A model generated the notes under the pieces. The model was not told the origin of the DNA. It worked only from the letters and a program-made list of their open reading frames with translations, and searched no databases. Position numbers and translations under genes: made by a program. This document shows positions 17,175 through 34,928 of a stretch of 64,000 nucleotides of DNA, one piece after another. Source of the stretch: a virus; IMG/VR virus record IMGVR_UViG_3300047090_000102, positions 1 through 64,000 of that record. One strand, 5' to 3'. Position 1 is the stretch's first letter; every line of letters starts with the position of its first letter.

Positions 17175-17430
17175 TGAAACTCCGCAGGTCAAGCGTGTCG
17201 CCGCCAGTCGGGTACGGATTCTTGTTCACAAATTGGTCGTACCAGAACGGTGCTTCTTTCCACTGTACCTTACCCCAAGTCTTTAAGTTGATCACGTCAA
17301 TCCGCGCCATGTCTGGGATGAACAGGCGGCGAGCGGGCGCAAAGCTGAATGTGCGGAACGGCCAGACGCGCTGCAACACAGGAGTCGCTGCGGCCAGTCC
17401 GAGCATCTTGAGAAAATTTCGCCTATTCAT
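17161..17430 (-). CDS. protein with Tat-signal-like N-terminus and a capsid-C-terminus-like tail
   Basis: Trimmed to the ATGA-coupled ATG 17430. MNRRNFLKMLGLAAATPVLQRVWPFRTFSF. The C-terminal IDVINLKTWGKVQWKEAPFWY resembles WDLINVKSWGKVKWGNPPFWF in the capsid protein. Confidence 0.55.
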   Translation of the reverse strand: MNRRNFLKMLGLAAATPVLQRVWPFRTFSFAPARRLFIPDMARIDVINLKTWGKVQWKEAPFWYDQFVNKNPYPTGGDTLDLRSFNGPA

Positions 17431-18233: not shown

Positions 18234-21200
18234 CTACTGAAATACGCCGTCCCGCAAAGCCTCGGAGCGTTTTACCGGGTCTTTTAACGTCTGTATCTCC
18301 TTCTGAATGTAGATCGGCATGATGACTACCCGCTCCGCCGGCGTGCTTTCCGCCATGACTTTCTTGATCTGGCCCAGAGTGAACCTCGGCAGCATCCGCT
18401 TGAATTCATTGGTCCGCATCTTGAAAAGGATCTTCTTAACATCAGCCTGGGTCAAGTGTCCGCTCGCGATTCTGGCCTTGTTGTCCGTGTACTCCTGCTG
18501 CTCTTCTGGCGTCCGTGGTGGCATCGCCTGTCCTGCGAACCGGTGCATCAGAATCTCTGCCGGGCTCATGCTCTCTGACTTCGGGAACTTGGTGCCCAGT
18601 AGAAGCCGCAGCGCTTCTCTCTTGCCCGCGCCTGGCTCGGTGTCACGCTCGTATTGCTCGTACTGCATCAGTGGGCCGATAGAACTCTTGCCCATGTGCT
18701 CGCCGATCTGTTTCGCTTTCGTCACAGCACTTCCCTCCGGGTTGTAAACAAAGTCGTTCTTGTAGTCACGGTTCTCGATCACATCATGCGCCGCGCGGAT
18801 CAACGTCGACGGCGTGAATTGGGACTGTGCCAGAGAGGAGAACGAACGCTCACCCTTGGCAGTCTCGATCATCTCCGCCGGCAGCTTTGAAAGTCCGAAT
18901 CTGGGCGACTTGGCATTCGGTTCGTTTGTAACTTTCTTCATGAATTGGTCGTAGGCTCCGTATCCCACAGCCACTAGAAGTCCTAACATCGCCAGCATGC
19001 TGAGTGCGTGCCCGCGAGCCTGATCGTCCACTCCGGACTTGAATGCTCCCTCGAAGATGTTCTTGTACGCCTTGAAGCGCCCGAGGTGGTATCCGTTGAA
19101 CCAGGTCAGCCACCGGGTCCGCATGATGTCGCCTAGGAGTTTGGAATCGAGCGGCCGCGTCGGAACTTGGTAGTCGGGGAAAATCTTGTTCGTCTCCCGG
19201 ACCGCTGCCTCCATGCTCATGCCGTCGGCGATCTTTTCATGCACTGACTGCATATACAGAATATCGTTCGAAACGAAAGCTGCGGCGTGACTTGCCCGGC
19301 GGATCGCCTGTACCGGGTCATCGCCCTGACGCAATCCCATGTAGTCCCGCATCTTCTCTTTGAACGGCTTGTTATTTTCCATCATCCCGGTCATCAGTTC
19401 GACGAAGTGCTTATTCAGGTCGGACACGTATTGCTTGTGACTCATCAGGTGGGCGCCCGCGTCCAACGCTCGGATGTAGTCGGCGTCTTTTGTCACTGCG
19501 GACTTTATGGCTTTAGCCATTGTCGACGTTACATTGCCTAAGCCAAGAACGTTGGCGTTTGCCACTGCACCACGGCTGACTACGGCGAAGTCTGCCATGT
19601 TGAGAACATGGAGTAACGGATTCAGCAGGATCGACGTTTGCGCCACGTCCGCGAGTTTGCCCAGAATGCTTGGCGCGTTTTCTTTGTTCAGTTTGTCGGC
19701 GAATCTCTGAAGCACCTCGGCGGTCCTGGGCTCGAACTGGTAGCCTCTGAACTGCGGCAGGTTCGCGATCTCTTTCCATCCGCGAGGGGCATATAGTCCT
19801 TTCTCTGGCAGCATGGCGACACTCGCGAAGGCCGGCGAGGACTTCCACGCATCAAGGAACCGCTTGGCTTCTACGGCCCGGGTGAGTTGCAGGAAATCCG
19901 CCATCGTCGTGGCTACTGGATCCCGGAAATAGGTCAAACCGGTATTTTCCTCAATTTCGTCCTTGGTCGCTTGGGTGATTGACCACTCGCCACGATTATC
20001 GTCAATAAATCGTTTTCCGACAGTAAAGCCCGATGGAGCCTCGCCCGACATAGGAGTAGGCTGGCCGCCGTCCCATCCGGTCACCTGGCCGTCTTTGAAT
20101 GACACTACCCGTCTGGTGCCCTCGCCGTCGTCCAGGGAGTACATGACGCGCTGTTTTAGAGACGCGGCAGTCTTACTGAGTACATTTCCCCGTCCGCTGC
20201 CTCTGGAGCCCTCTGTGGCACGCTGGAGCTGGTTCTGGCGATCGCGGACCACCCGGTGGAGGTACGTGGGGTCAAAGTCTGCCGGGATGTTGGCCTCGCG
20301 CAATTCCTCGTAAAGCGCCTGATTGGCCTCGCGCAGAGGAGTCACGTACTGATCAAGGATTCTCTGCTGCTCTGGGCTGAGCGACGTTGGGCCTGCCTGG
20401 GGAACCAGCAAGGAATCGATATGGCGGTCCACGGCCAGCCGGTCAGCGACCGTGGTGTCTTTGCCGACCTCCTGGAGAGTCTTCGCTGCGGTAATCGCCG
20501 ACCCTTCAAACTTGCGGTCCAGGTCTAAAAGGTTCGTTTCAAGGTTACGGGACTTGGCGAGGTTCTCTTTCCGCTCTGCCCGCGCTTGCCACTTTGATGG
20601 CAGTACGTGGGACTGGATCAAGTCGCGGACAGGTGCTGCCGCTTTGGCTATGGCTTCTACCAGTGGTCTGACGAGAGCGCCGGCTCCGCGTTCAATGACT
20701 GGTGTCGCGTGAGACAGGACTGCTGGTACGTTGAGATTGGCGAATCCACGCTCTCCTTTGCGCTCATCCTCTTTGAGTGAGTACGCTGGCGGTTCTACTG
20801 TAGGCTTTTGGCCTTCTCCGCCCGCATTTTCCTGATCTCGTCCGCGATTGCCCGGCGGCGCGATACCGGTCGGGCCTGCTGCGCTACCTTCGCCAGCCGC
20901 TGTAAGCCCTCGCGTACCTTCTCCGGGTCGGACTGAAAGGGCTGCTCTGTTGGTTTGGAGTCTGACGATTGAGAGTTCATGGAGCTCCTTTGCTCGGTCA
21001 AACATGCCATTCATAATCTCGGCGATCTTTGCGGGACCGTGATGGCGTTCGAGTTCGTTGTAATATTCGGTGAACCAGTCGGCGGCGTCTTCTGGTGATA
21101 GAGTGTTTTCGTCTGCTGCGATCTTGGCTGCCATCTCCGCGACTTTCATGTAATCCGGGTAGGCTTGATAGTAGGAATGCTTCAGTGCTGTGCCGAGTAG

Positions 21201-24200
21201 CTTCTTGGCGACCGGGTGATTCAGTAATCGCGGATAGGCGTCTTCCGGCAGATGCTCGGCAATCTTTCCGGCTCCCAACTCACGTTGTACTCCACCGTGG
21301 AATACCTCTTCTTGGAAGATATGTTCATCCCTCGCGCCAGTGAAGAAGTTCACGCCTTTGGTCTTTGCCTGGGGAGACTTTGCCGCTTGGTCGAAAGCAC
21401 TGGCCAGTGACTCCATGTCCTGCCGTACTTTTGCGTCTGTGGCCATTGGAGCAAAGTTACGCAGGTTCTGTGCAGTTCTTGCGGCCTGTGTGACGCTTAG
21501 ATTGGCTCCAACGATTCCATGCGGCGCACCGATGGCGGAACGTGCCATATCAAACGCGGCAGAGGACAACTCGACGGTCGGCGGAATCGAGCCTACCGAG
21601 GGCCGATACACGGCTTTGATCTCGGTAACTTCAGGAGCGTTCTCTCCAGTACTCTCCCATCCGCTTGGCGATTGCAGCGAGTAGGCTGGCTCTTCCTCCT
21701 CACCTCCCTTCGTCTCTACTTCCGCCGGGTATGTCTTCAGCACCTTGTCGAGGATATTGGCGGCATTGAATCTCTCTGTCCCGCTCATTGGCAGATAGTA
21801 GATCGGCTGTAACCCCTTCTCGTAGACAACACCCATGCTCTTGAGTTGCTCGCCCATTCCATGCCCTGACGGTATGAACTGCACAACCCTGTCACGGCCA
21901 ACACGCCCGCGCACGATTCGAGTCCCGCCCTCCAGCCGATATGGTGTGTTGTTTTCGAGAACATCCTTGATGATCTGGGAGGAGTTGACCGCGCTCTTGT
22001 TGCCGGTGATCTTCGCCAGGAGTTGGGCAATCTGCTCTTTCGGAATCGCCACTCCGACCACGCGCTGGCCGGACTTTGAGTCAACGACGGTGTAGACTTC
22101 AAGCCTCTGGGTCGAATCGTGGATGGCATTCCACCAGTGCATAACCGCGCCGCCGATCAGATGGTTGGGAGTCGTGTTGTGGGCCGGTGCCGCCTCGTAT
22201 TGTTTGCCCCACTCCTCTTTACCCCATGCAATCGGGTCCTTGGTAGCCGCTTCGCTATCGGCCAAGCTCTTCTGCGCACGCTCGAGAGCTTCCTCTTTTT
22301 CCTTGATCGACTCCTCTGTGTAGTATTGCGGATAACGCTCGCGGGATTCCTTGGTGGACTTCAGACTCCACTCTGCCGACTGAACAGAACTCTTCGCCTT
22401 GTCTATGGTCTTCTTGGACCACTCTGATATCTCTTCGAATCCAGGTATGTACGCTGGTTTCTGGTCAGCGCCGTGACCCCATTTACCAATCTCAAGTTTG
22501 TGATTTGCAACCTTTTCCCACTTGCCGTAGTCCGGATACACGACATAAGAGGCTGGCTCCCTGTGGCCGTCTGCTCGTATGATGTCTTTCGCGTCCACTA
22601 CGAACGCCAGTTTCCCATCACCGTTTCGCAGGATGCGCGGATTGAGTTTAGAATCCTGCTTCATCTTCTTTTCAAGTTGCGCGACCGAGAGCCGTTCAGT
22701 ACGAACATCGGCGTCCACTGGATAATAGAATGTCTCGGCCCCGGTCTTAGGATCACGTGCGATCACACGCTGCTCTTTAACAGTGAAAGTGTCTCCGGGC
22801 ATCTGCTTGACGCCGGTATCGAGCGTTCCGTTCTCAATCGCGTCCTTTACCGCTGCTTCAAATATGTCATAGAAATAGTTGTAGGCTCCGTTCTGAACAT
22901 CAGGGTCAAGAGCCAGGAGACGATTGAGCAAGCGGGTCACGTTGACCATGTCGGCGTCGGGCACGGTCGGCGCACCGCCTTGCCCAGTCTTCAACACCTT
23001 TAGGTCTTCCAGTATCTGCATCCCGGTAAGGTTCTTGCCTTTCGATTCTTTAGTCGCGGTCTCCGGCACCTCTGTGTTCTTCAGGAGACTTTGATAAAAC
23101 GCCCTGGTCGCGGCCTTACCCTGGTCGGTCTCGAAGTTGACTTTGTCCATCATCTCCGTGCCTTCGTTCGTCTTGGTCTGGCCTTTGGACAAAGCTTCGA
23201 GGGACCCCAGACGTCGGGCAATGGTCGAGATGAACCGGCTCTCGCCTCCCATATTGGTCTTGAGTAAGGCATATTCTGGAGGTTGAACCTGATTGCTTCG
23301 ATGTGTGCGACCCAGCATCTGCATCGCGCGGTCAGCGCTCCAGCCGACTTGCAAAGTGATATGCAGCCGTTTCTGCTGGTTCTTCATGTCCTTACCAGCA
23401 TGGAGCGAGATCCCGGTACCGCCGGCAGTTGACAGAATTGCTACGCGCTTCTTGCCAGCGTTGAAGTTTCCTTCCTCCACTTTGTTGATCTTGTCGCGCG
23501 CTACACCCGGGTCACCACGAGAGACGAACTTGCTCGTCGTCGGATCGAAGCGTTCTTTGCGTCCGGTGATCTCTGCGACCTTACTGTGACCACCCAGAGA
23601 TTCAACGAGGATATCTAGTGGGTTCGCTGGCATCTGTAGGTTTTGCTTCAGTTCTTTGATGAGTGCATCGCGCTCGGCTACGGCCTGCGGGTTGACCACG
23701 GGAATATCACGCCCGCTTTCGTCCTTCTGTGTCGCCAGAACCTTGATCGGTTTGCCTTCCGAGTCCACATCATCAATCCATTGCTGGGTTGGATAGTGCT
23801 CTTGCACCAAGTCCATCAGCATTTCAGCCGGCCCAAAGTCGTAGTCCGGTATCTCGTCCGTATCCTCGAGTCCCTTAAACTTCAGTTTCTCTCGGTTCTG
23901 TGCGGCCTCGTTCGTGTTGACAAGGCTGATAACGACACTCTTGCCATCGCCCAGCGCCTTGTTAGCTTGCTCGACCGCCGTAGGTATCTTGAGAGTTGTG
24001 AGCAGGACGTTGAAGAACCGTTGCTGGCTCGCGTAGAAGAGAGACATGAAGCGGGATTTCGCGCGACTGCCGCCATTCACCGTGTTCTGGATCGTATCTT
24101 CTACACGCTGTGATACCAGTTTCCACGCCTTGACCGCGCTGCGGTACAAGTCCTTCTGCTCGTCGTTAACCGTGTGCTCGATCTCGGAATACTGCACACC

Positions 24201-27200
24201 TTTATAACTCAAAGTCCGCGATACGTACTTGCCCTGCGACTTCAGTTCTCGCGCGATCATCTCCATGGCACTCATGCCGCCGGCAGAAATCTTAGCGTTG
24301 AACTCTTCAAAGCCACCAGGGAACGGTGTGCCAGCACCCCAGATGCCGAGCCGGTCCATGTATCCCAGGTTTGTCACGTCTGTCGCTGGCGTTGCTGAAA
24401 GGAAGAATGTCCTTAGCTTGGGATTACGTTCGAGGAACTTTTTAACTGTGTCGCCGGTCAGCGACACCTCTTGTTGGCTTCTGGCTACGGCGTTTTTTAA
24501 AGCTTGACAGTTATGGACTAGGAGACCGCCAGCGAAGTAGTTTCTGGTTGCAGTCTCGATATTGTGCACTGTACGGCAGACTCTACGGTTTCCAGGGAAT
24601 CCAGTATCTCCTGGTTCTTGAATCTCATTACAGTCCAGCCTACAGATTGGAGGAACACCTCTTTGCGCCGATCTGCCAGTTTCACCTTTATCGCTTGGTG
24701 TCCCTCTCCGTCCACCTCTATCGCTAACTTCAGTGACGGTTGCGAAATATCCAGTTTGTAGTGAGTCGGCAGTCCAGTCCCGCGATGTGTGTTGGTCGTT
24801 ACCACGAACTCCGTTGGCCACCCCAGCTTCTCTGCCAGCATTCGCTGCCGCAAGGACAGCGGCGTTCCGTTCCCGCCATTGAGATGAGCGAATCCTTTCT
24901 TGCGTGAAGCTTCTAGCGCTACGGCCCTGACTGCTGGACTGCGTAATGGATTCGTTGGGCCGTAAAGATGCTGCTGCATTTTCTCTTGAACGTCCGGGCG
25001 CTTGCGGACTTCTTGAAGAATTGCAGACCACTTCTGCTTTCCTTCTGGAGTTATACGCCTTTTGGCTTTCAATTCCTGATTGTTCATCCGCCACTGTGCC
25101 GAGCACTTCTTCGTACAAAAACGACGTTTTATCGTCCCCCTGATACTGTGAGTAGTACTCCGCTTCGCTACAAATGGCTGCTGGCACAAAGCACAAATGA
25201 GGTTGAAGGGCATCAGGTACAAAGTCTAATAGCGCGACGGTGTCATCGCAAGCCAATTCGTCCGAAGGAACGTATCCACGATTGGCAGTCCAGACTGGGT
25301 GATTGCCGGTCATCGGCGTTTCGTGCACGATTGTAAAATCATTTACGGTCTCACGTCGGAATAGATAAAGTACTGGCGTAGCCTCTATTTCCCCGGTGTC
25401 GTGATTAAATCCCCAAACGCTATCTCCTATGTGTAGTTGCTCGATTGGTACAGGACCGGATGGGGTTTCTATCTTCGTACCAGCAGGAACGCACTCATCG
25501 AAGATAACGTGTGCACCCTCACCCTCATCATTGCCGCGTATCCACTTCTCCAATTGAGCAATGCGCTTGTTGCCTTTTTTGTCCTCGGAACGAAGCAACG
25601 CATACGTAGAAAACATGATCCCTTCATGATCAATCGGAGTTGTGGCCGGCTGCTTCATAAAAGGCTTGATCGTCTTGGAAAGGGTCGTCGCGCCGATACC
25701 GTCGAGGTCGCGGATGGCGTCCTGCATCAAATCCCACTTCTCTGATACCCACACAAGACGGCGTCGCCCTTGGCGCCAATTGTCGAATAACACACCGGCT
25801 GCTTCTCTGCCCTTGCCAACCCCGGTGCCGTCGGAACTAGCGGCTGCGGCACGATGACCGCTTGGCAAAATGATCTGGTTCTGCTGCCCGGCGAGAGCGA
25901 TCGGCTCCATCTGGACTGCGGAAATGCGCCCCTCGGTAACTACAGACTGCGGCAAGCGCGGCTGATATGTAATCTCTGGCAGTGAGACAGTCGCCATAGA
26001 TTTACTTTCGACTATCGGGCCAGGGTGTGTAGAGCCTTTGAGTGTTGGGCGATACGAAACAAAAGCAGACGTGTCCTCAGTCTCCGCTTGTTGCTCGCGG
26101 GCCTCGCGTTCGAGTTGCAGTCCTTGTTTCTCTGCTTCTGTTGCTGGTGGGGCTTTGGGCTTGCCTTCGATGGGCTTACCCAGAAGCGAGGACACTTCCT
26201 GGTGGACTACTTCGAGGTACGGCCGCGCCCATTCGCCCAGGTCGGCGATCATCTTCTTGGACCATGGGTCAAACTGGATTATTCCTTGCTGGAAGTGAAA
26301 TCCGCCGACATCGACCATGTCGTTGATGTCTTCGGGCGTGAGTTCTTTTTCGCCGCCTTCTTCCAAACTGTATGCCGGTGGCTCTTCTCCTTCTGGCTGC
26401 ACCTCACCGCGGCGTGCACGCAGCCGCTTCAGTGCTTCCTCGCGATTGTCGGCCGTGAAGCGTTCGGCAGGTTTGGGCTTCGGAGTTGCAGGCTGTATCG
26501 CGCGGGGTTTCTTGGCCTCTAGTTGCGCCAGTTTCTGTTTTAGCGCTTCGTACTCTGGGCTGCCTGGCTGTGGCTGACCTTCTATTTTCTTGCCGAGCCT
26601 TTCTCCTGCTGCTTTGCGAATTTGTTCGCGGAGTTTTTCGGCTGCACTTACTGTAGACGGTCGTTCAGCGTTGACTGCCGGAGTAGAGCCTCCAGCACCT
26701 CCAGCGGTTTGCACTGGTGTACGAGGTCCTGTTGCAGGTTGAACTTGGGATTGCTGTAGTGGAACTGGTTGATTGCCGACTCCGGCTGCGACTCCTCCAG
26801 GTTGGCCAGGAACTCGTTCAGGTCCACCTGTAGGTTGAATTTCTGCGCCAGTGCCTCGCTCTCCTCGTAGTGGTTGTCCACTGCCTGCTGTGCCAGGAGC
26901 TTTAGATTCTCCCACACCAGTTGCGGCGATTTCTTGCCCAGTGCCTGCTGTGCGGGCGGTTCGAGTCGGGACTGGCCTTGTTTCTGCAACATTCTCAAGG
27001 AGAGTATACGCCTGTTCGAGTGTACTAACATTGCCCTGTACAGTAGAATCCCAGTTTTTTAGGTCACCGCGGTTTGCTTCCCTTTTGAGATAGGCCAGAC
27101 GCCAGCTAGGCTTCCCCTGCAATTCTTGTATTTCATCGGTTATCCGCTTACGGCCGAGCGAGCCCATTCGGGACGGCGTAGAACCGTCCTTGTCGATCAC

Positions 27201-30200
27201 GATGATTCTGGTAGCAAAGCTTGTGCCGTACTTGGCGTACTCCTTGCCAGCAATACGGATGTTGGCGCGAACATTGTACTTTTCGGCTATCTTGTCGAAC
27301 CACCTGCCGGCGCCACCCGGGGCCGTGAGTGCCGCTCCGCCGTTGGCATCGTCTGCGCGTCCACCGCCCAGAATGGTGACAAGACGCCCGCCAGGAGCCA
27401 GACGCTGCAATGCGGAATCTACGTGATTGAATCCATAGACGTTGCGGTTTTTGACCGCCTGCCCTTCTGCGCCTTTTAATGCGCCAGCGGAAAACGGCGG
27501 GTTCATGATGATCACTGTCGGCTGGACAGAACTCTTGAGCAGGGAGTTGATGATCTCGCCGTCGTGGGAAGTGATGTTATCGAACCCAACGTGCTTGAGC
27601 ATCGCCTGTCTGCGCGTCGAGATCTCGTTAACGTGAACCTCGGCGCCAACCGCTTTGGCGAATATTGCCAGACCACCGTTACCGCCGGATGGCTCCAGAA
27701 CCACGTCATCGGGTTTTATGCCAGCGACTTTGGCCACGGTGTAGGCCTCGGTTGGCGGAGTCGAGAACTGCTGGCCCTTCAGTTGCTCATCTGTGCGCGT
27801 GCTCTGCGTTGGCAGACGGTTCATGAGGTTCTCGCGCAACATCGCCAGACCTTCGATCGCTGGCATGCCCATCAGGTTTTCGCCGGCGTCGAGCAGGTAT
27901 TTGTTGACACCTGCCTCCATGGCGTCGGTCGCGTCTTTGGGTGTCCACTCGCCCGAAACCCGCGAGGATCCAAAGTGCTCGGCAGCCAAGCGCTCGAACT
28001 GCGGCATATTTCCGAGGGATTCTCCAGTTATGAGCTTCTTATAGACTGCGTCTGCCAGTTTAGCGGCAGGGGTTGCCTCTGGCTCTTTATCGACCGGAGT
28101 GACTTCGCTCTTGAGTGCCCAGCCCTCTATCCGCTCATGAGTTTTGGGGTCTTGTAGGCGAACCCTGTTTCCCTGCTCGAAACCTACTTCGTACTGCTTT
28201 CCGCGATATTCTACCAGATCACCAATTCTGTAAGTTAGCGGGCCGGGAGGTTGAGGCTCATATCCTGGCAATGGCTGCGCGGCGTATCCCTTCCGGCGAA
28301 TCTGTTCATCCCTGATTTTTTGCAGTTGTTTATTCAACGCTGGAGTTGCGCCGCCGTATGTTCCGCCTGTAGTCTTGTTTGCCTCTAGTGCCTTTTCGAG
28401 TTGGGTTACGCGCTCGGCCAGTGTCTGATCTGAAGCCTCACGTATTTCTGCTGGCTCTGATACACGAGTTTGAGGGCGCGCTTCGTAGCTTCCTTCTTCT
28501 GTTGGAACAACGTCGGCTTTCTTGATTGTAAATTTCGGCTCTGCCTTAGTCGCCTGCTTGAGTTCGTGTACTTCCGGCGCCGTCAGTGGCTTTGCTTCCG
28601 CCTCACGGTTTGGCGCTTCATCGGATGGGTGGACTTCCCACTGATCAACACCAGACCACCGGGACCACAAGTCCTGACCCCATGCTTTGGCCGCTTCTTC
28701 TGTGGGGAAGCGTAGAGCGTTGTAGGCCCAGTTGGCATCGCCTTTGCCTTTGACGCCGACCTTGAAGCTCTGCTGTGGGCCCGGTGGCGTGGCGGTCTCA
28801 GCGGCCTTGTTGAGCCAATATCCTGGTCCGGTGTTGGCGGCAATATTCTCGCCGAAATCTTGGAAGGTAAGGGGTTCGTGGTCTGGCTTATCGAGATATT
28901 CCGAGTAAGCCTTTTTCATCTCATCGAGAGTCGGTATTCTTCCACCCTGGTTTTTGCCGCGCTTTTCGAATGTTGGCTGGAGTACGTGCTTCAGTTGCTC
29001 CTGGTACCACTTATCGTCATATCCACTTCCGATACCACTAAGCCATTGGCTTCCTTCCGAACTAGTCTCTTTCTTATTGGCCTGCGACCTATCATCCATC
29101 CATTTGTTGGTAGCGTCGGTCTCGATCTGGAAACTGTTTATTTTACGTTGAGCATCCGCGATCGCCTTTTCGCGACTTTCGTTCATCCTTGAAATTGAAT
29201 AGCCGTCCTGGTCGTTTACCTGCCAGAGCTTTCCACTCTTGCCGGCTGAATACTCAGTGACAGTCCAGCCTTTCGGTAAATCGGGCGCTTCATCCGCGCG
29301 GAACTTAGCGATCTCCTGCTTGTCTGGCATGGTCGCGTGGTTACGCACACGCTCGCCTTTGATCCGGTTGCCGTCCTTGTCGACGGCTGCTACGTCTACA
29401 TTCCATCCGTTCTTTGGCCAATTGGCTCCAGGTTCAGGTGGATGGAACGCAATGACTTCGTCCCTCTGGCCGCCGTATCCATTGACGATACGGCCGGGCT
29501 TGAAGAACCGCGGCAGCTCTTCATCACTCAAATAGTTTGGACTGGTCTTCGCTGGCGGCGTCTTTTTGGCTGGGGCGGCCGCGGGAGTGGCAGGTGCGCC
29601 TTCCAGGATTGCCAGCCTCTCTGCCTTGCCTTCTGCGGACAGGTACGGCGTGTTGCGCACGACCTGCGTCATTTTGACACGCTGCTCTGGCGTCATCTTG
29701 TCGAAGTTGACGCGCCACTGGTCAGTTATGAGATCAGACTTTACCTCGGTCGGGGCTCGCTCGCCTTTGGTGTCGATGACGAACGTGCGGCCATCGCGGC
29801 GAATTACTTTGTCTCTCGATGGATCGAAGTCTGATATCTGTTGGGCATCCAGCTTCGGTCCACCGCGGCTTTGAGGCGGAAGCTTCAGCAGTTTGGCGTC
29901 CCTCTTGGCCTCTATCTCCGCGAGCCTCTTCTTGAGATCTTCGTACTCGCGGCTGCCTGGGCCGGGCTGACTAGGCTTTGTAGTTGCCGCCGCTTGAGGT
30001 TCAGGTGCTTTCTCTTCCTCCTGTGCCTTCCACTCTTTCACGTCTTCCCGGTGTCCGATCTTCTGCATAAACATGGAATCGCCGAGATACCCGGGCGTGG
30101 CGCTCAGATCGTTTTCATCGACACCATATAACTCGAGTCCGTCCTGGCCGCCACCTACGATCTGGTTGACAACAAACCGTTGCCGCTTATCCCCGTATCC

Positions 30201-33200
30201 AGTATTGATCGTTTCGAGCACATCGCCGACGCCGACATCCATCGCTTTGAGTTTTCCGTTCTTGTCCCACTCTGCTTGGAGTTCAGCTTTACGCTCACTG
30301 GCCTCTTTCTCCGCGTCGTCTGCACGCTGCTTTTCCGCTGCCTTCTTGGCCTCCTCGCGCCGCTTGATCTCCGGATCGTTCTTCACGGTCCAGTTCTGAT
30401 CGGCCGGGTAGGTCTTGCCAACGGATGAGGTGCTTCCAATCAGAGACGCGGAGCCGGTAACGCGCACACGCAGCTCGCCCTTGCGGTTCGTCTCGACTTT
30501 TCCGTTGATGTACGCGATCGATCCGCCGAAGCCTGGGACTGCCTGGTAGACCTCGTCGCCATCCTTGGATTTCATGCGGCCATCGGCCCATGTGTCAGTA
30601 GCAGCCGCGCCAAGAAATTGCTTTATCTTGGCATCAAACTTTTGTTTGCCATTCTGCTGTAGCAGCTTAATGGTGCCATCTAGGGTCCGCTGCTCGGTGC
30701 TGTGTTGATGGATTTCAGTGAAGAGACGCGCACCGGTGGTTATCTCATAGGAAGACCATCCCTGTTTGTCGTGTTTTGCGATACTTCCGCGCGGCGGCAC
30801 GACGGCGATACGGTATTCCTCGAATCCAGGCAAGAGGTATTCGGTTCCCTTGAGGTGGAGTTTTTCGCCACCATGGAGAGGATTAGTGAACTCCACTCCA
30901 CGCTTGAGAACCAATGGCTGTGCAACCTGCGGTGGGTTATCGCGCTTGAATGTTGGAACCTCCGGAGACTTGGCAGAAGGGGCCGGTTTAGCGATTGCGC
31001 CTGTAGCCCTATCAACAATTTCCCCGATTTCCTGCCTGATTTGGTGCAGTAATACCGCTTCATGTCCGGGGATTTTCTTTCGTCCAGCAATCAAATCACG
31101 TTCGGCGGCGCGCAGAGCTTCGAGTTTTACGCCCTCTTCCGAGTCTGCTGGTATGCGGGCCGGGCTACGCTTCTCCTGCGCTTTTTGGGCGGCGCGAACA
31201 GGCTCGGCTGCTCCAACTCCCTGGCCAGTTGAACCTGATCCCTGACCTTGGCCGGGAGTCTCTGGAGTACGAGTTTGAGCTTGTCCTGCATCTGTGGATA
31301 AACCTGTTGAAATTGTACCACCAAGCGGTATCGTCTCCTGGCTCCCGTCCTTCTTTGATACGACGATATGGTCTACTGGGACATTTTGGCCTTCAAGTTG
31401 CCTTCCGCCTTTGTATTGTGCGGCGACCTCTGGCTTTACGTATCCAATCGTCAAATGCGGGCGATAGGAGTCGAACGTGTCTTTGTGGAAGCTACCTGCG
31501 CCTTCTACAGCCTTACGCAGCGCCAGCAACTCAGGAGTGCTCTCCAGTGGCGCAATAACCGGTACAGCGCCGTCAGAGTGCTCGCTGGCAGGGAATGTAT
31601 CGGTCGGCCCAATAGGGACCTCGAACGGGGCGATCTTTGACGCCGCTTCTTTGATCTTCTCGACCGCTGCCGGACTGTCATCCTTCAGGCCATACCGCAG
31701 GGTCAAATGGGGGTGATCCTCCCGGCCCTTTGGATTCCCGCCGAAGTCAGTCGGCATCAGGTGCTCGTCTGGGATGGACGCCGCGGCTGCCGCGTGAGCC
31801 TGACCGAGTGCGCTCTCTGGCGCGATATTGATCTGAGTCGAGCCTTTCTTGAACTCCTGCTCTTCTGTCCCGGTACGCTCGCGGAACTGCTGGACCGCTG
31901 CTTCGTGGAATCGTGCTGCCTCATCCCAGTACTTCTTGCGCTCTGCTGACCCTTCAGGAAACTCCCGGCCCGAGGTGTACAGCCGGTGTGTTTGGTCTGT
32001 GATTGCCTGTATCTCAGGGATTACGATCTGGATTTCAGCACTCAAGCCTGATGGCATCTGAGCCTGAACATTAGCACTTGCGTATCCTGCCTTGTTTTCA
32101 CGCGGTTGCAGGAAGTTGTCTTCGACTCCAAGGACGTTGTACCGCTGCTTCAGCGCGGCGATGATCTGGTCTTTGGCTTCGACCGTGTCCGCTACGATCT
32201 GGCTGGCCAAGTAGTCGCCAATGGTGTTCGGCGGCTTGTCGTCTTCTGTCTTCTCGCCCAGGCGTTCCAAGTTCTTTTGCGGTCTGAGTCGGCCGCCGTG
32301 GGCTTCGTCAAAGTGGGCTCCTTGGACGCTCGCCGCGATCTCAGAGAGCCCGGCTGCCAGTTCTGGCGCCGCTTCTGCCGCGAGCCGTTCGTTCTCAATC
32401 TCGCTACCTGACGGCTGGACTATCTGACGGCCGGCTTCGTGGTCGTAGTCTCCAACCTTGGCTACGGCTACTTCTGAAGGCTCCTTGGCTGGCTGCGCGA
32501 GTTTCGCGGCATCGGCTGGAGATTCGTCTTTTACTTCTACCCGGGGAACCTGGCCCGGTGCAAGTTGGGCCTCCTGGTGTACCTTCTGTACCGCCGGTGA
32601 ATCGGTGGTCATTGCTCGTCCCATAGCAGGGACATCGCCAGCGTTCGGTAACTGTGGTGCTCCAGTCTGACCTTTGGTGCGTTCTGCCTTTATCCGGGTA
32701 GCTTCGGCTGAGATAGCGGGCGAGTAGTCGGCGTTCGCCGGTAGTCCCAGGTTCTTCTTGGCCTGCATCCAGTCGTCGGTTTCGTTCTGCGCCACGGTGG
32801 CGGATGTTGCTGCGGTCTCTGGTTTGGCGGGTGGTTCGCCTATCCATGTAGGCGGACGTGAGGGATTGGCCGCGTCTCTCTTGATGAGTCCATCCTGTTC
32901 CATTCTATCAATGAGGTGTGTGGCCTCTGCGTAACCAATATTGAGGCGGCGCTGCAAGAGAGATGTTGATGCCTTGCCGAATTCAGCCGAAGCCTGCTTT
33001 GCCTGTTCGTATTTGTCGCTCACTGCCGGTGATTCCGGCGTAGGTGTCGATGGTTTCGGCTTGCCGCGGTCAATCACCCGCTGTACAGCCGCTGCAGGCT
33101 TTGTTGCAGGCGTTGCAGGTTTATCTGCCGCTTTGGCCGCTGCCTCCTGCGCCTTGTTGTGCCCCTGGACGGCGTCATTTATCAACGTCTGCGCGAGCTT

Positions 33201-34928
33201 CTCTGCCTGCTCTGGCGTTTTCGCTATGTGCAGGGTTCCATCCGGACCAACAAACCTCCCGCCAGACTGCTGGATCGCATTGATTAGGTAGTCGTGCGCG
33301 TGAAGGATCAGTTGCGGGCGCTGTGCGGGCGAGGCTGCGGCGATCTTGGTCGCCAAATCGTTCAGATGATCAGGGTGAAGCTCGGCGGGATGAGCCTGCG
33401 GCGTGGATCCAGTTGCTGGAGGTTGCGCGGCGGCGGTTGCTGCCTCTGTCTGCTGCTTACCAAAGGTATCCACCTGCCGGTTGATCATGTCCAGTGCCAA
33501 CTTCGCGGCTGTCTTAAGGTCGGTCGCGGTCTCTACGTGCCCGGTAGTTGGATCGGTGAATGTTCCCATCGGGCGGGCCAGTATCCACTTTGTCAGGTTC
33601 CAGTATCCTTCTTTCATTAGCGCTTCACGCGCCATTGGATCCGGAGCCTTGGCGATTGCTCTCGCGACAGTGTCAAGTACTTCTGGAGTAAGCGACGGCG
33701 GGCCTGGCGGCGGTGGAGGAGGAGCCTTTGGCACTTCTCCAGTTCCTTGAAGATAATGCATCATCGATTGCGTTGCTTCATCGATGACCGGCGCACTACG
33801 TGGCGGAACACTTACCTCAAATGGACCTACCTTGCCTCGAAATGTCGTTCCTTCTGCCGTTTGCGCTACTCCGGCAGCAACCTTGCCACCAAACACTGAA
33901 CCACCAGAAAATTTCCCCCTTGGCGTTTCTACAGATCCAGTCTTGAGGCCAGTTATGACTCCAAGAGCGGATGGCAGGAAGAATGCCGCTGACCGTATAA
34001 GCTCTTCGTCTTCTGGCGAAACATGACCATGAACTGCCGAACCAGTCCCTTCGCTAGCCAACATTCCTGCTCCATACCCAGCAGCAACCTTGAGCGGCGA
34101 AGTAAGCGCACCAGCAACCGCCAGCGGTTCCATGAGTTCACCAGATCCCTGTAGAATCTCAGCGGCACCCAATGAACGCTGCCTGCGCCTTTTCTCCTCA
34201 TCTTCAACAGCAGATCCCTTTGCAAAATTAGTGAGCATCTTAGCCTCGTCTTCGGGCGTAAGGTGCATATCTCCGGTAGGAAGGCTATGGGGATGCTCCG
34301 GCCTGCTCGTTGATTCTTCTGGCACATCTCGATAATGTGCTGGCCCTATAGTATTAGGGTCATCAGGAACCATCGTTTGTTTATGCACAAACAGCGGAGC
34401 ATGTGTCTGCGCTTGGTTCTCGCTGATGCGGCTTATGCCAGTCGCCAGCGGCTCAGCTCCAACCCATGCATCAAGGACAGGAATACGATCAGCCTCCGGA
34501 ACAAGAGGTTCCTGATAAGGTGTTCCGGTTTTTGCATGATACAAAATTGGTTGATCGAGTTGAGGGTCATGTGGCTTCCCTGTTGGTTCTGCTACGGGCT
34601 GCCCAGACGCTGCACGAGCTGCACCTGTTGGCGTCTGCGTGCGATACGCGCCGGGATAAGCTGTGGGGCCACGCGGTACATCCACGTGAGAAGGCATCGA
34701 CTCAAATAGGCTGGGTTGTTTCGGACGATAGCCGACGGACCCTGGCCCAAGAGGATTGCCGAGACGGTCAAACTCTTGGTCAGCCTGAGTTTTAGTGAGT
34801 GATGGAGTGGAAGGCGCGGAGCCCTCTAATTCAAAGCCGGGAGGGAGCGTTAGAGCGGGAGAGGGAGAGGAATCTTGGCCCTCAAGTTCAAAGCCTGGAG
34901 GGAGAGCAACTGCGTTTTTGTCTGCCAT
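18234..34928 (-). CDS. giant polyvalent internal-virion-slot protein (5,564 aa) with FtsK-gamma-like, RelA/SpoT-like, 2H phosphoesterase, N6-adenine methyltransferase and intein-interrupted Sbno/SNF2-like helicase modules
   Basis: Uninterrupted 16,695-nt ORF with an ATG start. Catalytic motifs were read directly (see the domain features). It occupies the T7 gp16-equivalent position between internal-virion-like genes and the terminase. Confidence 0.85.
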   Translation of the reverse strand: MADKNAVALPPGFELEGQDSSPSPALTLPPGFELEGSAPSTPSLTKTQADQEFDRLGNPLGPGSVGYRPKQPSLFESMPSHVDVPRGPTAYPGAYRTQTPTGAARAASGQPVAEPTGKPHDPQLDQPILYHAKTGTPYQEPLVPEADRIPVLDAWVGAEPLATGISRISENQAQTHAPLFVHKQTMVPDDPNTIGPAHYRDVPEESTSRPEHPHSLPTGDMHLTPEDEAKMLTNFAKGSAVEDEEKRRRQRSLGAAEILQGSGELMEPLAVAGALTSPLKVAAGYGAGMLASEGTGSAVHGHVSPEDEELIRSAAFFLPSALGVITGLKTGSVETPRGKFSGGSVFGGKVAAGVAQTAEGTTFRGKVGPFEVSVPPRSAPVIDEATQSMMHYLQGTGEVPKAPPPPPPGPPSLTPEVLDTVARAIAKAPDPMAREALMKEGYWNLTKWILARPMGTFTDPTTGHVETATDLKTAAKLALDMINRQVDTFGKQQTEAATAAAQPPATGSTPQAHPAELHPDHLNDLATKIAAASPAQRPQLILHAHDYLINAIQQSGGRFVGPDGTLHIAKTPEQAEKLAQTLINDAVQGHNKAQEAAAKAADKPATPATKPAAAVQRVIDRGKPKPSTPTPESPAVSDKYEQAKQASAEFGKASTSLLQRRLNIGYAEATHLIDRMEQDGLIKRDAANPSRPPTWIGEPPAKPETAATSATVAQNETDDWMQAKKNLGLPANADYSPAISAEATRIKAERTKGQTGAPQLPNAGDVPAMGRAMTTDSPAVQKVHQEAQLAPGQVPRVEVKDESPADAAKLAQPAKEPSEVAVAKVGDYDHEAGRQIVQPSGSEIENERLAAEAAPELAAGLSEIAASVQGAHFDEAHGGRLRPQKNLERLGEKTEDDKPPNTIGDYLASQIVADTVEAKDQIIAALKQRYNVLGVEDNFLQPRENKAGYASANVQAQMPSGLSAEIQIVIPEIQAITDQTHRLYTSGREFPEGSAERKKYWDEAARFHEAAVQQFRERTGTEEQEFKKGSTQINIAPESALGQAHAAAAASIPDEHLMPTDFGGNPKGREDHPHLTLRYGLKDDSPAAVEKIKEAASKIAPFEVPIGPTDTFPASEHSDGAVPVIAPLESTPELLALRKAVEGAGSFHKDTFDSYRPHLTIGYVKPEVAAQYKGGRQLEGQNVPVDHIVVSKKDGSQETIPLGGTISTGLSTDAGQAQTRTPETPGQGQGSGSTGQGVGAAEPVRAAQKAQEKRSPARIPADSEEGVKLEALRAAERDLIAGRKKIPGHEAVLLHQIRQEIGEIVDRATGAIAKPAPSAKSPEVPTFKRDNPPQVAQPLVLKRGVEFTNPLHGGEKLHLKGTEYLLPGFEEYRIAVVPPRGSIAKHDKQGWSSYEITTGARLFTEIHQHSTEQRTLDGTIKLLQQNGKQKFDAKIKQFLGAAATDTWADGRMKSKDGDEVYQAVPGFGGSIAYINGKVETNRKGELRVRVTGSASLIGSTSSVGKTYPADQNWTVKNDPEIKRREEAKKAAEKQRADDAEKEASERKAELQAEWDKNGKLKAMDVGVGDVLETINTGYGDKRQRFVVNQIVGGGQDGLELYGVDENDLSATPGYLGDSMFMQKIGHREDVKEWKAQEEEKAPEPQAAATTKPSQPGPGSREYEDLKKRLAEIEAKRDAKLLKLPPQSRGGPKLDAQQISDFDPSRDKVIRRDGRTFVIDTKGERAPTEVKSDLITDQWRVNFDKMTPEQRVKMTQVVRNTPYLSAEGKAERLAILEGAPATPAAAPAKKTPPAKTSPNYLSDEELPRFFKPGRIVNGYGGQRDEVIAFHPPEPGANWPKNGWNVDVAAVDKDGNRIKGERVRNHATMPDKQEIAKFRADEAPDLPKGWTVTEYSAGKSGKLWQVNDQDGYSISRMNESREKAIADAQRKINSFQIETDATNKWMDDRSQANKKETSSEGSQWLSGIGSGYDDKWYQEQLKHVLQPTFEKRGKNQGGRIPTLDEMKKAYSEYLDKPDHEPLTFQDFGENIAANTGPGYWLNKAAETATPPGPQQSFKVGVKGKGDANWAYNALRFPTEEAAKAWGQDLWSRWSGVDQWEVHPSDEAPNREAEAKPLTAPEVHELKQATKAEPKFTIKKADVVPTEEGSYEARPQTRVSEPAEIREASDQTLAERVTQLEKALEANKTTGGTYGGATPALNKQLQKIRDEQIRRKGYAAQPLPGYEPQPPGPLTYRIGDLVEYRGKQYEVGFEQGNRVRLQDPKTHERIEGWALKSEVTPVDKEPEATPAAKLADAVYKKLITGESLGNMPQFERLAAEHFGSSRVSGEWTPKDATDAMEAGVNKYLLDAGENLMGMPAIEGLAMLRENLMNRLPTQSTRTDEQLKGQQFSTPPTEAYTVAKVAGIKPDDVVLEPSGGNGGLAIFAKAVGAEVHVNEISTRRQAMLKHVGFDNITSHDGEIINSLLKSSVQPTVIIMNPPFSAGALKGAEGQAVKNRNVYGFNHVDSALQRLAPGGRLVTILGGGRADDANGGAALTAPGGAGRWFDKIAEKYNVRANIRIAGKEYAKYGTSFATRIIVIDKDGSTPSRMGSLGRKRITDEIQELQGKPSWRLAYLKREANRGDLKNWDSTVQGNVSTLEQAYTLLENVAETRPVPTRTARTAGTGQEIAATGVGESKAPGTAGSGQPLRGERGTGAEIQPTGGPERVPGQPGGVAAGVGNQPVPLQQSQVQPATGPRTPVQTAGGAGGSTPAVNAERPSTVSAAEKLREQIRKAAGERLGKKIEGQPQPGSPEYEALKQKLAQLEAKKPRAIQPATPKPKPAERFTADNREEALKRLRARRGEVQPEGEEPPAYSLEEGGEKELTPEDINDMVDVGGFHFQQGIIQFDPWSKKMIADLGEWARPYLEVVHQEVSSLLGKPIEGKPKAPPATEAEKQGLQLEREAREQQAETEDTSAFVSYRPTLKGSTHPGPIVESKSMATVSLPEITYQPRLPQSVVTEGRISAVQMEPIALAGQQNQIILPSGHRAAAASSDGTGVGKGREAAGVLFDNWRQGRRRLVWVSEKWDLMQDAIRDLDGIGATTLSKTIKPFMKQPATTPIDHEGIMFSTYALLRSEDKKGNKRIAQLEKWIRGNDEGEGAHVIFDECVPAGTKIETPSGPVPIEQLHIGDSVWGFNHDTGEIEATPVLYLFRRETVNDFTIVHETPMTGNHPVWTANRGYVPSDELACDDTVALLDFVPDALQPHLCFVPAAICSEAEYYSQYQGDDKTSFLYEEVLGTVADEQSGIESQKAYNSRRKAEVVCNSSRSPQAPGRSRENAAASLRPNESITQSSSQGRSARSFTQERIRSSQWRERNAAVLAAANAGREAGVANGVRGNDQHTSRDWTADSLQTGYFATVTEVSDRGGRRGTPSDKGETGRSAQRGVPPICRLDCNEIQEPGDTGFPGNRRVCRTVHNIETATRNYFAGGLLVHNCQALKNAVARSQQEVSLTGDTVKKFLERNPKLRTFFLSATPATDVTNLGYMDRLGIWGAGTPFPGGFEEFNAKISAGGMSAMEMIARELKSQGKYVSRTLSYKGVQYSEIEHTVNDEQKDLYRSAVKAWKLVSQRVEDTIQNTVNGGSRAKSRFMSLFYASQQRFFNVLLTTLKIPTAVEQANKALGDGKSVVISLVNTNEAAQNREKLKFKGLEDTDEIPDYDFGPAEMLMDLVQEHYPTQQWIDDVDSEGKPIKVLATQKDESGRDIPVVNPQAVAERDALIKELKQNLQMPANPLDILVESLGGHSKVAEITGRKERFDPTTSKFVSRGDPGVARDKINKVEEGNFNAGKKRVAILSTAGGTGISLHAGKDMKNQQKRLHITLQVGWSADRAMQMLGRTHRSNQVQPPEYALLKTNMGGESRFISTIARRLGSLEALSKGQTKTNEGTEMMDKVNFETDQGKAATRAFYQSLLKNTEVPETATKESKGKNLTGMQILEDLKVLKTGQGGAPTVPDADMVNVTRLLNRLLALDPDVQNGAYNYFYDIFEAAVKDAIENGTLDTGVKQMPGDTFTVKEQRVIARDPKTGAETFYYPVDADVRTERLSVAQLEKKMKQDSKLNPRILRNGDGKLAFVVDAKDIIRADGHREPASYVVYPDYGKWEKVANHKLEIGKWGHGADQKPAYIPGFEEISEWSKKTIDKAKSSVQSAEWSLKSTKESRERYPQYYTEESIKEKEEALERAQKSLADSEAATKDPIAWGKEEWGKQYEAAPAHNTTPNHLIGGAVMHWWNAIHDSTQRLEVYTVVDSKSGQRVVGVAIPKEQIAQLLAKITGNKSAVNSSQIIKDVLENNTPYRLEGGTRIVRGRVGRDRVVQFIPSGHGMGEQLKSMGVVYEKGLQPIYYLPMSGTERFNAANILDKVLKTYPAEVETKGGEEEEPAYSLQSPSGWESTGENAPEVTEIKAVYRPSVGSIPPTVELSSAAFDMARSAIGAPHGIVGANLSVTQAARTAQNLRNFAPMATDAKVRQDMESLASAFDQAAKSPQAKTKGVNFFTGARDEHIFQEEVFHGGVQRELGAGKIAEHLPEDAYPRLLNHPVAKKLLGTALKHSYYQAYPDYMKVAEMAAKIAADENTLSPEDAADWFTEYYNELERHHGPAKIAEIMNGMFDRAKELHELSIVRLQTNRAALSVRPGEGTRGLTAAGEGSAAGPTGIAPPGNRGRDQENAGGEGQKPTVEPPAYSLKEDERKGERGFANLNVPAVLSHATPVIERGAGALVRPLVEAIAKAAAPVRDLIQSHVLPSKWQARAERKENLAKSRNLETNLLDLDRKFEGSAITAAKTLQEVGKDTTVADRLAVDRHIDSLLVPQAGPTSLSPEQQRILDQYVTPLREANQALYEELREANIPADFDPTYLHRVVRDRQNQLQRATEGSRGSGRGNVLSKTAASLKQRVMYSLDDGEGTRRVVSFKDGQVTGWDGGQPTPMSGEAPSGFTVGKRFIDDNRGEWSITQATKDEIEENTGLTYFRDPVATTMADFLQLTRAVEAKRFLDAWKSSPAFASVAMLPEKGLYAPRGWKEIANLPQFRGYQFEPRTAEVLQRFADKLNKENAPSILGKLADVAQTSILLNPLLHVLNMADFAVVSRGAVANANVLGLGNVTSTMAKAIKSAVTKDADYIRALDAGAHLMSHKQYVSDLNKHFVELMTGMMENNKPFKEKMRDYMGLRQGDDPVQAIRRASHAAAFVSNDILYMQSVHEKIADGMSMEAAVRETNKIFPDYQVPTRPLDSKLLGDIMRTRWLTWFNGYHLGRFKAYKNIFEGAFKSGVDDQARGHALSMLAMLGLLVAVGYGAYDQFMKKVTNEPNAKSPRFGLSKLPAEMIETAKGERSFSSLAQSQFTPSTLIRAAHDVIENRDYKNDFVYNPEGSAVTKAKQIGEHMGKSSIGPLMQYEQYERDTEPGAGKREALRLLLGTKFPKSESMSPAEILMHRFAGQAMPPRTPEEQQEYTDNKARIASGHLTQADVKKILFKMRTNEFKRMLPRFTLGQIKKVMAESTPAERVVIMPIYIQKEIQTLKDPVKRSEALRDGVFQ
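24510..25493 (-). mobile_element. intein (328 aa) inserted in helicase motif II
   Basis: Begins CVPAGTKIETPSG (Cys1 codon 25491..25493). TGNHPVW block B. Ends ...VHNIETATRNYFAGGLLVHN, followed by the +1 Cys (24507..24509). Confidence 0.85.
24518..25222 (-). CDS. DUF559/Vsr-like (PD-(D/E)XK) homing-endonuclease-like ORF, nested in the +1 frame inside the intein
   Basis: 234-codon ORF with TTG at 25222 and the first ATG at 25213. N-terminal zinc-finger-like CALCQQPF...RFCTKKC. Core LRQRMLAEKLGWPTEF...YKLDIS..SLKLAIEVDGEGHQ...ADRRKEVFLQSVGWTVMRFKNQEI. Its stop lies 5 nt before the intein's terminal Asn codon. Confidence 0.6.
   Translation of the reverse strand: MYLMPFNLICALCQQPFVAKRSTTHSIRGTIKRRFCTKKCSAQWRMNNQELKAKRRITPEGKQKWSAILQEVRKRPDVQEKMQQHLYGPTNPLRSPAVRAVALEASRKKGFAHLNGGNGTPLSLRQRMLAEKLGWPTEFVVTTNTHRGTGLPTHYKLDISQPSLKLAIEVDGEGHQAIKVKLADRRKEVFLQSVGWTVMRFKNQEILDSLETVESAVQCTISRLQPETTSLAVS
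26648..27031 (-). CDS. candidate overprinted +1-frame ORF (127 aa) inside a linker of the giant ORF
   Basis: ATG start. The helical, non-repetitive product (...LVWENLKLLAQQAVDNHYEESEALAQKFNLQVDLNEFLANLEES...) uses CTG/GAG/AAC/CAG/TTC codons. The giant frame here is a G/P/T/A linker with atypical GGA/CCT/CAA/CGA codons. Confidence 0.35.
   Translation of the reverse strand: MLVHSNRRILSLRMLQKQGQSRLEPPAQQALGKKSPQLVWENLKLLAQQAVDNHYEESEALAQKFNLQVDLNEFLANLEESQPESAINQFHYSNPKFNLQQDLVHQCKPLEVLEALLRQSTLNDRLQ
27249..27941 (-). other. N6-adenine DNA methyltransferase domain (within the giant ORF)
   Basis: QQFSTPP, SAM motif VLEPSGGNGG (27672..27701) and the catalytic NPPF (27492..27503). Confidence 0.8.
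31329..31811 (-). other. 2H phosphoesterase (LigT/Acb1-type fold) domain (within the giant ORF)
   Basis: Two HxT motifs 84 residues apart. HPHLTLRYG has HLTL at 31698..31709. RPHLTIGYV has HLTI at 31446..31457. Confidence 0.7.
31899..32351 (-). other. RelA/SpoT (RSH)-like nucleotidyltransferase motif region (within the giant ORF)
   Basis: RLRPQKNLERLGEK...IGDYLASQIV...NKAGYASANVQAQMPSGLSAEIQIVIPEIQAITDQTHRLY resembles the R.K...eK / D..g.Ri / GY.s.H / EiQirT / H..YK layout. Eye-level match only. Confidence 0.4.
32829..33011 (-). other. FtsK-gamma-like winged-helix domain (within the giant ORF)
   Basis: KASTSLLQRRLNIGYAEATHLIDRMEQDGLIKRD matches the S.S.LQRrl.IGYnRA..li..mE..GiV pattern of FtsK gamma. 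Confidence 0.6.

Follow-up and report, generated by a model that had tools for sequence, protein, structure and literature searches.

A giant polyvalent-type protein of a tailed phage with adjoining RelA/SpoT-like and 2H phosphoesterase modules and an FtsK-gamma winged helix

DarB of phage P1 is a large virion-delivered protein which combines a methyltransferase with a helicase and is thought to protect incoming DNA. Polyvalent proteins were defined by Iyer, Burroughs, Anand, de Souza and Aravind in 2017 (J Bacteriol, PMC5512222), who predicted that the phage representatives are packaged and injected, listed RelA/SpoT and 2H phosphoesterase domains solely for phage-type polyvalent proteins, and also listed a methylase-helicase dyad (Strawberry-notch versions included) and, as an infrequent DNA-binding domain, the FtsK winged helix-turn-helix (wHTH). 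In the same study alarmone synthesis by the RelA/SpoT domains was proposed to reprogram the host, RNase activity or breakdown of defence-activating nucleotides was proposed for the 2H domains, and acquisition of RelA/SpoT was reported for (pro)phages from Spirochaetes and from Epsilonproteobacteria. Here we analysed a stretch of viral DNA of 64,000 nucleotides (positions 1 to 64,000 of IMG/VR virus record IMGVR_UViG_3300047090_000102, hereafter the window), the minus strand of which contains a single uninterrupted open reading frame (ORF) of 5,564 aa with an ATG start (window 18234-34928). A preliminary description had located an FtsK-gamma wHTH, a RelA/SpoT homologue (RSH)-like region and a 2H phosphoesterase within the N-terminal third of this giant protein. 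The three modules do lie in one protein, and the interval concerned (window 31329-33011) is exactly residues 640-1200 of the giant ORF, to whose minus strand all window coordinates below refer.

The domain identities given in that description hold for all three modules, and the catalytic residues are conserved in homologues, so that it withstands the check by which it proposed to be refuted. The reading that we favour, and consider reasonably probable, is that this segment acts as a genuine effector region within a polyvalent protein from a tailed phage, composed of a captured wHTH, an active RSH-type domain and an active 2H domain. The wHTH would bind double-stranded DNA, the RSH-type domain would most likely use ATP to pyrophosphorylate the 3′-OH of a nucleotide (yielding an alarmone-like product) or of an RNA end, and the 2H domain would most likely cleave cyclic or 2′,3′-cyclic-phosphate nucleotides, with immune second messengers and RNA ends as candidate substrates. 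The RSH and 2H domains would travel as a recurrent cassette, probably acting as independent enzymes. The domain identities, the conserved catalytic residues, the repeated RSH-2H pairing and the conserved gene order are shown below; we infer the substrates, and with them an anti-host or anti-defence role. It is plausible that the protein would act at infection on RNA ends or on the nucleotide signalling of its host. This functional interpretation, already put forward in the preliminary description, is essentially the hypothesis published by Iyer et al. (PMC5512222).

The giant protein is a well-supported new example of a phage polyvalent protein and not a new kind of system. Like the described members of the class, it is multidomain, belongs to a phage of the terminase-portal type, and contains RelA/SpoT, 2H, FtsK-wHTH and methylase modules together with a Strawberry-notch-type helicase. 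A Pfam scan run over the whole protein in five pieces resolved at least seven recognisable modules along the ORF, and its relatives display mosaic architectures in which modules are shuffled, as in other polyvalent proteins. It differs from the proteins treated by Iyer et al. in its putative host lineage, Acidobacteriota, in the intein carried by its helicase, and in the recurrent RSH-2H adjacency, on which the searchable text of that paper is silent. New here are the delineation of a large RSH-like family and the mapping of its active site, the Gln, Asn and Ala substitutions particular to one clade, the recurrence of the RSH-2H adjacency, the apparent host origin of the wHTH, and a conserved genomic position.

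The RSH-type pyrophosphokinase-like domain occupies aa 826-1020 (window 31869-32453). The giant sequence by itself scores 17-20 bits against the Pfam RelA_SpoT model, below the cut-off of 27 (E 7e-3 to 8e-4), and in the whole-protein scan the weak match (E 7e-3, 17 bits) spans aa ~885-969. RelA_SpoT was nevertheless matched by 36 of 38 diverse family members, with a best E of 3.1e-10. Sixteen close homologues, of 46-61% identity, were found for the module at aa ~766-1020; five of these are stand-alone proteins of ~450 aa with a precomputed PF04607 match. When a profile of nine modules was searched against 1.84 billion proteins, the cluster representatives matched numbered 1,006 at E <= 1e-3 and 291 at E <= 1e-10, and many are embedded in proteins of 2,000-4,000 aa. 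Comparison of a 38-member profile with the PDB returned RelP (6fgk, E 8e-10), Rel (8acu, 1.7e-9), RelA (8fr8, 3e-7), RelSeq (1vj7, 6e-7) and Tas1 (6ox6, 4e-6). An AlphaFold2 model of aa 826-1210, built from 18 sequences of the RSH-2H dyad, reached a mean predicted local distance difference test (pLDDT) score of 87.4. In Foldseek searches the first half of this model matched Tas1 (6ox6, E 1e-6) as well as RelP, RelQ, CapRel and the Streptomyces exported small alarmone synthetase SaSAS with template modelling (TM) scores of 0.6-0.7 normalised to the target, the values for RelQ (5ded) and RelP (6fgk) being 0.69-0.70. The RSH assignment is thus secured not by this one sequence but by four independent lines of evidence, namely the close homologues, the Pfam matches of the family, the profile comparison with the PDB and the modelled fold.

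The conserved RSH residues comprise R882, K885, R889, K893, D905, A908, Q910, G948-Y949-A-S951-A-N953, E965-I-Q967, H981 and Y984. What the preliminary description had read as R.K is really R882-x-x-K885. Conservation was counted, in giant numbering, across 141 aligned RSH modules: K893 and D905 are invariant (141/141 each), E965 and H981 are present in 140/141, R882 in 139/141, Y/F949 and Y984 in 137/141, Q955 in 134/141, K885 in 133/141, Q967 in 130/141, R889 in 126/141 and G948 in 118/141. Hidden Markov model (HMM) alignments to RelP, read together with the published structure of SaRelP with the ATP analogue AMPCPP (PMC5794853), place R882 opposite Arg78, K885 and K893 opposite Lys80 and Lys88, D905 and E965 opposite Asp107 and Glu174, and H981 opposite His190. 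In SaRelP, Arg78 stacks on the adenine, Lys80 and Lys88 bind phosphate, Asp107 and Glu174 are Mg2+ ligands and His190 contacts the ribose (PMC5794853). Because the mapped catalytic residues are conserved or invariant, the catalytic core of the module, divergent as it is, is intact. With the small alarmone synthetases and RSH toxins RelP/RelQ, Tas1, CapRel and FaRel2 it shares the fold, the R/K phosphate clamp, the D and E Mg2+ ligands, ExQ and H..Y. In contrast to these enzymes, it has R-x-x-K instead of R-x-K, is embedded in a 5,564-aa protein, and is without a hydrolase, TGS or antitoxin partner.

The 2H phosphoesterase domain follows at aa 1028-1204 (window 31317-31847). PF13563 (2_5_RNA_ligase2) matches aa ~1069-1194 with an E of 2e-16 (60.8 bits, cut-off 27) and PF02834 (LigT_PEase) reaches 30.5 bits (cut-off 23.3). 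The two HxT motifs noticed earlier, H1074-L-T and H1158-L-T, are invariant in alignments of 15 and 18 homologues. The second half of the AlphaFold2 model retrieved the penguinpox cyclic GMP-AMP (cGAMP) phosphodiesterase (E 2.7e-6) in Foldseek, and also Usb1, Arabidopsis cyclic phosphodiesterase (CPDase), YjcG, Deinococcus CPDase and TT0787, with 9ciw, 6pfq, 1jh6 and 2d4g among the structures matched. Queried by itself in a word-indexed homologue search, the 2H module gave nothing at E <= 1e-3; relatives were obtained via tblastn on phage genomes, among the proteins recovered by the RSH profile, and in IMG/VR. Like LigT/YjcG, Acb1, the poxvirus cGAMP phosphodiesterase and Usb1, the module displays two HxT motifs in an alpha-beta fold that is duplicated; an N-terminal S-T-Q strand of its own and the conserved signatures H-V-T-V-R-Y-G and P-H-x-T-x-A-Y-V-K-P-E set it apart from them.

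Two more specific assignments of the 2H module were tried and found no specific support. The likeness to the anti-defence nuclease Acb1 drawn in the preliminary description is matched about equally by YjcG in the profile comparison, and by structure LigT-like proteins, Usb1 and the poxvirus cGAMP phosphodiesterase score as well or better; in BFVD, many LigT-like phage proteins come before the Acb1 proteins, whose ranks are 38-39 (E ~5e-5). For LigT, the TIGR02258 equivalog model gave 18.8 bits against a cut-off of 65.7. The module might heal RNA ends, acting as a 2′,3′-cyclic-phosphodiesterase which counters host anticodon nucleases or RNase toxins, instead of degrading immune signals. We hold this to be unlikely: its best sequence and PHROG matches are YjcG, LigT and phage 2H proteins annotated as RNA ligase, and the CPDases 1jh6, 5h7e and 1iuh are among its structural matches, but the penguinpox enzyme and Acb1 score comparably, the TIGR02258 score is low, and the whole giant protein yielded neither an RNA ligase nor a polynucleotide-kinase domain. 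Polyvalent-type 2H domains, moreover, were never associated with RNA ligases in the survey by Iyer et al. (PMC5512222).

In the giant protein the RSH and 2H modules are directly adjacent, separated by a linker of 7 aa, so that the preliminary wording "back to back" suits this pair; it does not suit the wHTH, which ends ~135 residues before the RSH module. Local HMMs for both modules were run over the recovered proteins, and the count was taken over those relatives in which 200 aa or more follow the RSH module. The same 2H subfamily was found in 25 of these 81 relatives and immediately after the RSH module in 20, with linkers mostly of 4-30 aa. Both modules are present in 13 of the 36 relatives that are 1,500 aa or longer. 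Elsewhere (P0102, P0149, L021 and L034) the two lie apart or stand in the opposite order, and two phage polyvalent proteins of UniProt, represented in BFVD, align along the RSH as well as the 2H domain. RSH and 2H therefore form a recurrent, non-obligatory cassette in giant phage proteins. Within the searchable library, a literature search found no paper joining an alarmone synthetase (or toxSAS) and a 2H phosphoesterase or LigT as a fusion.

Such recurrence might reflect a coupled two-step unit working on one substrate, the 2H domain processing, for example, a 2′,3′-cyclic or 3′-modified species that the RSH domain makes or needs, or the two domains together inactivating a host immune nucleotide. 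The repeated RSH-then-2H order with short linkers in 20 relatives speaks for coupling, as does the co-occurrence of the modules in one polypeptide even where they are separated or reversed. Against it, about two thirds of the large RSH-bearing relatives are without the 2H module, most viral loci with the 2H module are without RSH, the RSH active-site variants (R/Q at 910, N/H/T at 953) do not correlate with 2H presence, and the predicted TM score of 0.54 for the AlphaFold2 model indicates no confident RSH-2H interface; to our knowledge, no chemistry links the two activities. We regard a coupled unit as unlikely. Since the pairing is non-obligatory, the variants do not track the 2H module and no interface is confidently predicted, two independent effectors, often inherited as a cassette, are probably the better description. 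Still less credence is given to the most far-reaching version of coupling, a dedicated RSH-2H cassette with a shared, undescribed substrate, which would be a new anti-defence mechanism delivered at infection; here a Gln910/Asn953 RSH domain could pyrophosphorylate, and the 2H domain cleave, an immune nucleotide or an RNA 3′ end.

The gamma domain of FtsK is the wHTH which reads KOPS (FtsK-orienting polar sequences) and activates XerD. Its counterpart in the giant protein lies at aa 638-688 (window 32865-33017), where PF09397 (FtsK_gamma) matches with an E of 2e-15 (56.7 bits, cut-off 30.6), in keeping with the original assignment; the segment also matches solved FtsK-gamma domains in phmmer (for example 2j5p, E 4e-4) and phrog_13700 "FtsK/SpoIIIE-like" (E 5.5e-14). 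The phage sequence EFGKASTSLLQRRLNIGYAEATHLIDRMEQDG is like the Acidobacteriota FtsK consensus EFGKASTSLLQRRLRIGYGRAAHLIDLMExDG at all but a few positions, sharing EFGKASTSLLQRRL, HLID and MEQDG with it. The consensus concerned is of Occallatibacter and Terracidiphilus type. This near-match points to a recent, one-off capture from the FtsK of an Acidobacteriota-type host lineage, and to a phage host within the Acidobacteriota. Whereas all cellular matches carry an FtsK_SpoIIIE motor, the phage wHTH is detached from any, no FtsK_SpoIIIE ATPase domain being found by Pfam anywhere in the giant protein. The phage wHTH further differs from FtsK-gamma in four substitutions (R to N, GR to AE, A to T), and because these cluster just before or at the start of the recognition helix, its DNA specificity may differ.

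To judge from its distribution, the wHTH is no part of a conserved unit with RSH and 2H. It is absent from 146/146 other proteins carrying the RSH-like module, and of 83 related viral loci only L021 has it as well. The stretch between wHTH and RSH includes low-complexity sequence, and its last ~60 residues (aa ~766-825, window 32454-32633; MGRxMTxDSPAV...PGQxPxVxVK) form a conserved pre-RSH segment, which accompanies the RSH module in relatives. BLASTP alignments to P0001-P0011 start at aa 700-769, and a phmmer search with aa 695-826 recovered 23 relatives in which the segment is always just upstream of the RSH module.

Delivery of the giant protein with the DNA at infection is inferred from the analogy to polyvalent proteins, from the conserved gene order to the terminase, and from the methylase-helicase pair in the same polypeptide. 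The large terminase subunit gene (TerL, phrog_979, E 1e-33) lies at window 12645-14258, and its nearest cultured relatives, at ~28% identity, are podoviruses. Relatives of the 2H module or of the dyad are encoded in 365 IMG/VR stretches. Gene order was compared over 83 loci (80 IMG/VR and 3 GenBank phage), in which the same-strand order of an 877-aa gene, a 590-aa gene, the polyvalent gene and TerL recurs, and this order is kept in many IMG/VR contigs of 57-70 kb. The polyvalent gene in these loci is laid out as an N-terminal region, an optional RSH module, the 2H module, an optional methyltransferase-helicase block and a C-terminal region. In a cultured phage, Tunturiibacter phage Tunturi_5 (L001, PP885688.1), the gene for the 1,362-aa protein gp321, which has the same 2H subfamily, has the head-tail connector gene on one side and that of a minor tail protein on the other. 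T7-like podovirus gene order provides the basis for likening the placement of the giant gene to that of podovirus internal or ejection proteins, which by analogy it would resemble. Tunturi_5 gp321 is annotated as "MutT/NUDIX hydrolase" and has an SprT-like HELCHH motif and further C-terminal modules; it is itself a protein of polyvalent type, for which the deposited name looks inadequate.

Alternatively, the protein may not be delivered at all and may be made during infection, acting or being processed inside the cell, or may be mainly a structural or ejection protein to which the enzymes are accessory. The conserved N- and C-terminal backbone with hydrophobic segments could serve a structural purpose apart from the enzymes. 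On the other side, the gene sits in a same-strand block of unannotated, presumed virion genes by TerL which is conserved across relatives, and P1 DarB, the closest experimentally studied analogue, is packaged and injected. DarB likewise joins a methyltransferase and a helicase, a likeness drawn by description; it has none of the RSH, 2H and FtsK-gamma modules, and the giant protein is more than twice as large. Packaging and injection are also what Iyer et al. predict for phage polyvalent proteins (PMC5512222). We place little weight on non-delivery and retain injection with the genome as the preferred explanation.

Several observations weigh against the favoured reading, and they fall on delivery as well as on catalysis. 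For packaging and injection, the neighbouring genes are nearly without recognisable homologues, and because scans of these neighbours gave almost nothing, the virion-module context rests on synteny. No MPTase-PolyVal match was found by Pfam in the giant protein and an HExxH motif, sought there as a sign of a processing protease, was likewise not found, which differs from many members of the class, in which the metallopeptidase is frequent and non-obligatory. AlphaFold2 modelling of the C-terminal region (6 sequences) was uninformative, with a pLDDT of 46.6. For the 2H module, a 15-sequence profile singled out no subfamily (YjcG E 0.005, Acb1 9q2g 0.012, poxvirus phosphodiesterase 0.13). For the RSH module, the second stacking Arg (SaRelP R112) is replaced by Q910 within D-Y-L-A-S-Q, and the acceptor-side YRSxH reads G-Y-A-S-A-N.

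The departures in the RSH module have a distribution of their own in the family. Position 910 is Q in 62 and R in 78 of the 141 modules, and the His of SxH is kept in 34/141 relatives; the departure is specific to the clade of the giant protein, in which, compared with RelP/RelQ, Tas1, CapRel and FaRel2, Gln stands for the stacking Arg, YASAN for the acceptor motif and EIQIV(I/P) for EIQIRT (EIQIVI in the giant protein itself). Because Q910 and YASAN replace canonical contacts, the donor or acceptor preference may differ from that of characterised RSHs. A more radical interpretation takes the module of this clade for a pseudo-enzyme, or for one that binds nucleotides without catalysis, as three swapped contact residues (GxR Arg to Gln, YRS Arg to Ala/Pro, SxH His to Asn) might suggest. 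This seems highly improbable to us, as D905, E965, Q967, K885, K893, R882 and H981 are all retained, and are invariant within the clade despite an overall identity of 46-61%. An active RSH-type domain, possibly with altered substrates, remains the favoured interpretation.

Beyond the effector region, the giant protein contains a methyltransferase-like module at aa ~2300-2590 (window 27159-28031), where MTS and Erm matches are weak and the Pfam signal is confined to aa ~2400-2530; the module is common to P0102 and P0107 (phmmer, E ~1e-115). The Strawberry-notch-type helicase (window 22629-26051) matches PF13872 (AAA_34, E 1.8e-86) and PF13871 (Helicase_C_4, E 6.9e-78), and the methyltransferase-helicase block as a whole is present in P0102 and P0107 too. 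AAA_34 is split by a Hint_2 match (E 1e-4). The intein responsible is 328 aa long (aa 3146-3473, window 24510-25493, boundaries DE|C...HN|C) and sits exactly in motif II (VIFDE|C) of the helicase; P0102 and P0107 align on either side of this position without an insert.

The most conserved backbone of the orthologues is the C-terminal region of ~765 aa (aa 4800-5564, window 18237-20531), which matches P0092, P0089 and P0087 in phmmer (E 1e-159 to 1e-174, ~40% identity) and P0229 at 87% identity; a homologue search with these 765 aa yielded one near-identical fragment. It is predicted to be mainly helical and to include a single strongly hydrophobic stretch (aa 5304-5327). The N-terminal region, the RSH-2H pair and this C-terminal region are common to the giant protein and its orthologues P0089, P0092, P0087 and P0100. 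Close to it, at aa ~4560-4735 (window 20724-21251), lies a module with the pattern (E/Q)EE(L/V)FH(G/S)xxQ/R..LG and no Pfam match, which is found beside RSH-like modules in several relatives (P0001, P0002, P0003 and P0009). The motif E-(E/P)-P-A-Y-S-L occurs three times in acidic or Gly-rich linkers, before the helicase (aa 2851, window 26364-26378), after the helicase block (aa 4414, window 21675-21689) and before the C-terminal region (aa 4714, window 20775-20789). P0001 has the similar QPPHYYLQ, and the copies could be processing or docking sites. At the N-terminus, aa 10-36 (window 34821-34901) comprise two copies of LPPGFELEG, while P0001 has two copies of PPGF(R/Q)FE and P0009 three of PDLVxEHE; these tandem short motifs may serve as a signal for targeting or for packaging.

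The surroundings of the gene are sparse in recognisable functions. When 20 neighbouring ORFs were scanned with Pfam and PHROG, TerL, an SMC-like ATPase, a weak head-decoration-like stretch inside the 877-aa ORF and a weak major-head-like match (window 47489-48760) were all that was identified. The large neighbours (590, 266, 877, 346, 423, 530, 804, 1094 and 537 aa) are almost all without a significant Pfam or PHROG match, and the poorly matched blocks extend over window 35764-63237 and 12645-17837 on the minus strand. The phage lineage looks very poorly sampled. The ATPase is a 430-aa ORF (window 2785-4077, minus strand) with matches of AAA_23/SMC_N type (E 1e-9), possibly an SbcC/Rad50-like or a defence or anti-defence ATPase.

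The idea that such proteins manipulate the host dates from 2017, and the value of the present locus lies in a well-defined test case and family and not in a new concept. The RSH-like family is large and essentially uncharacterised, and RSH with one 2H subfamily makes a concrete and cheap domain pair for expression and assay. If its modules are active and delivered with the DNA, the giant protein would amount to a natural inventory of the counter-defence enzymes that act in the first minute of infection by phages of soil Acidobacteriota, for which hardly any experimental data exist.

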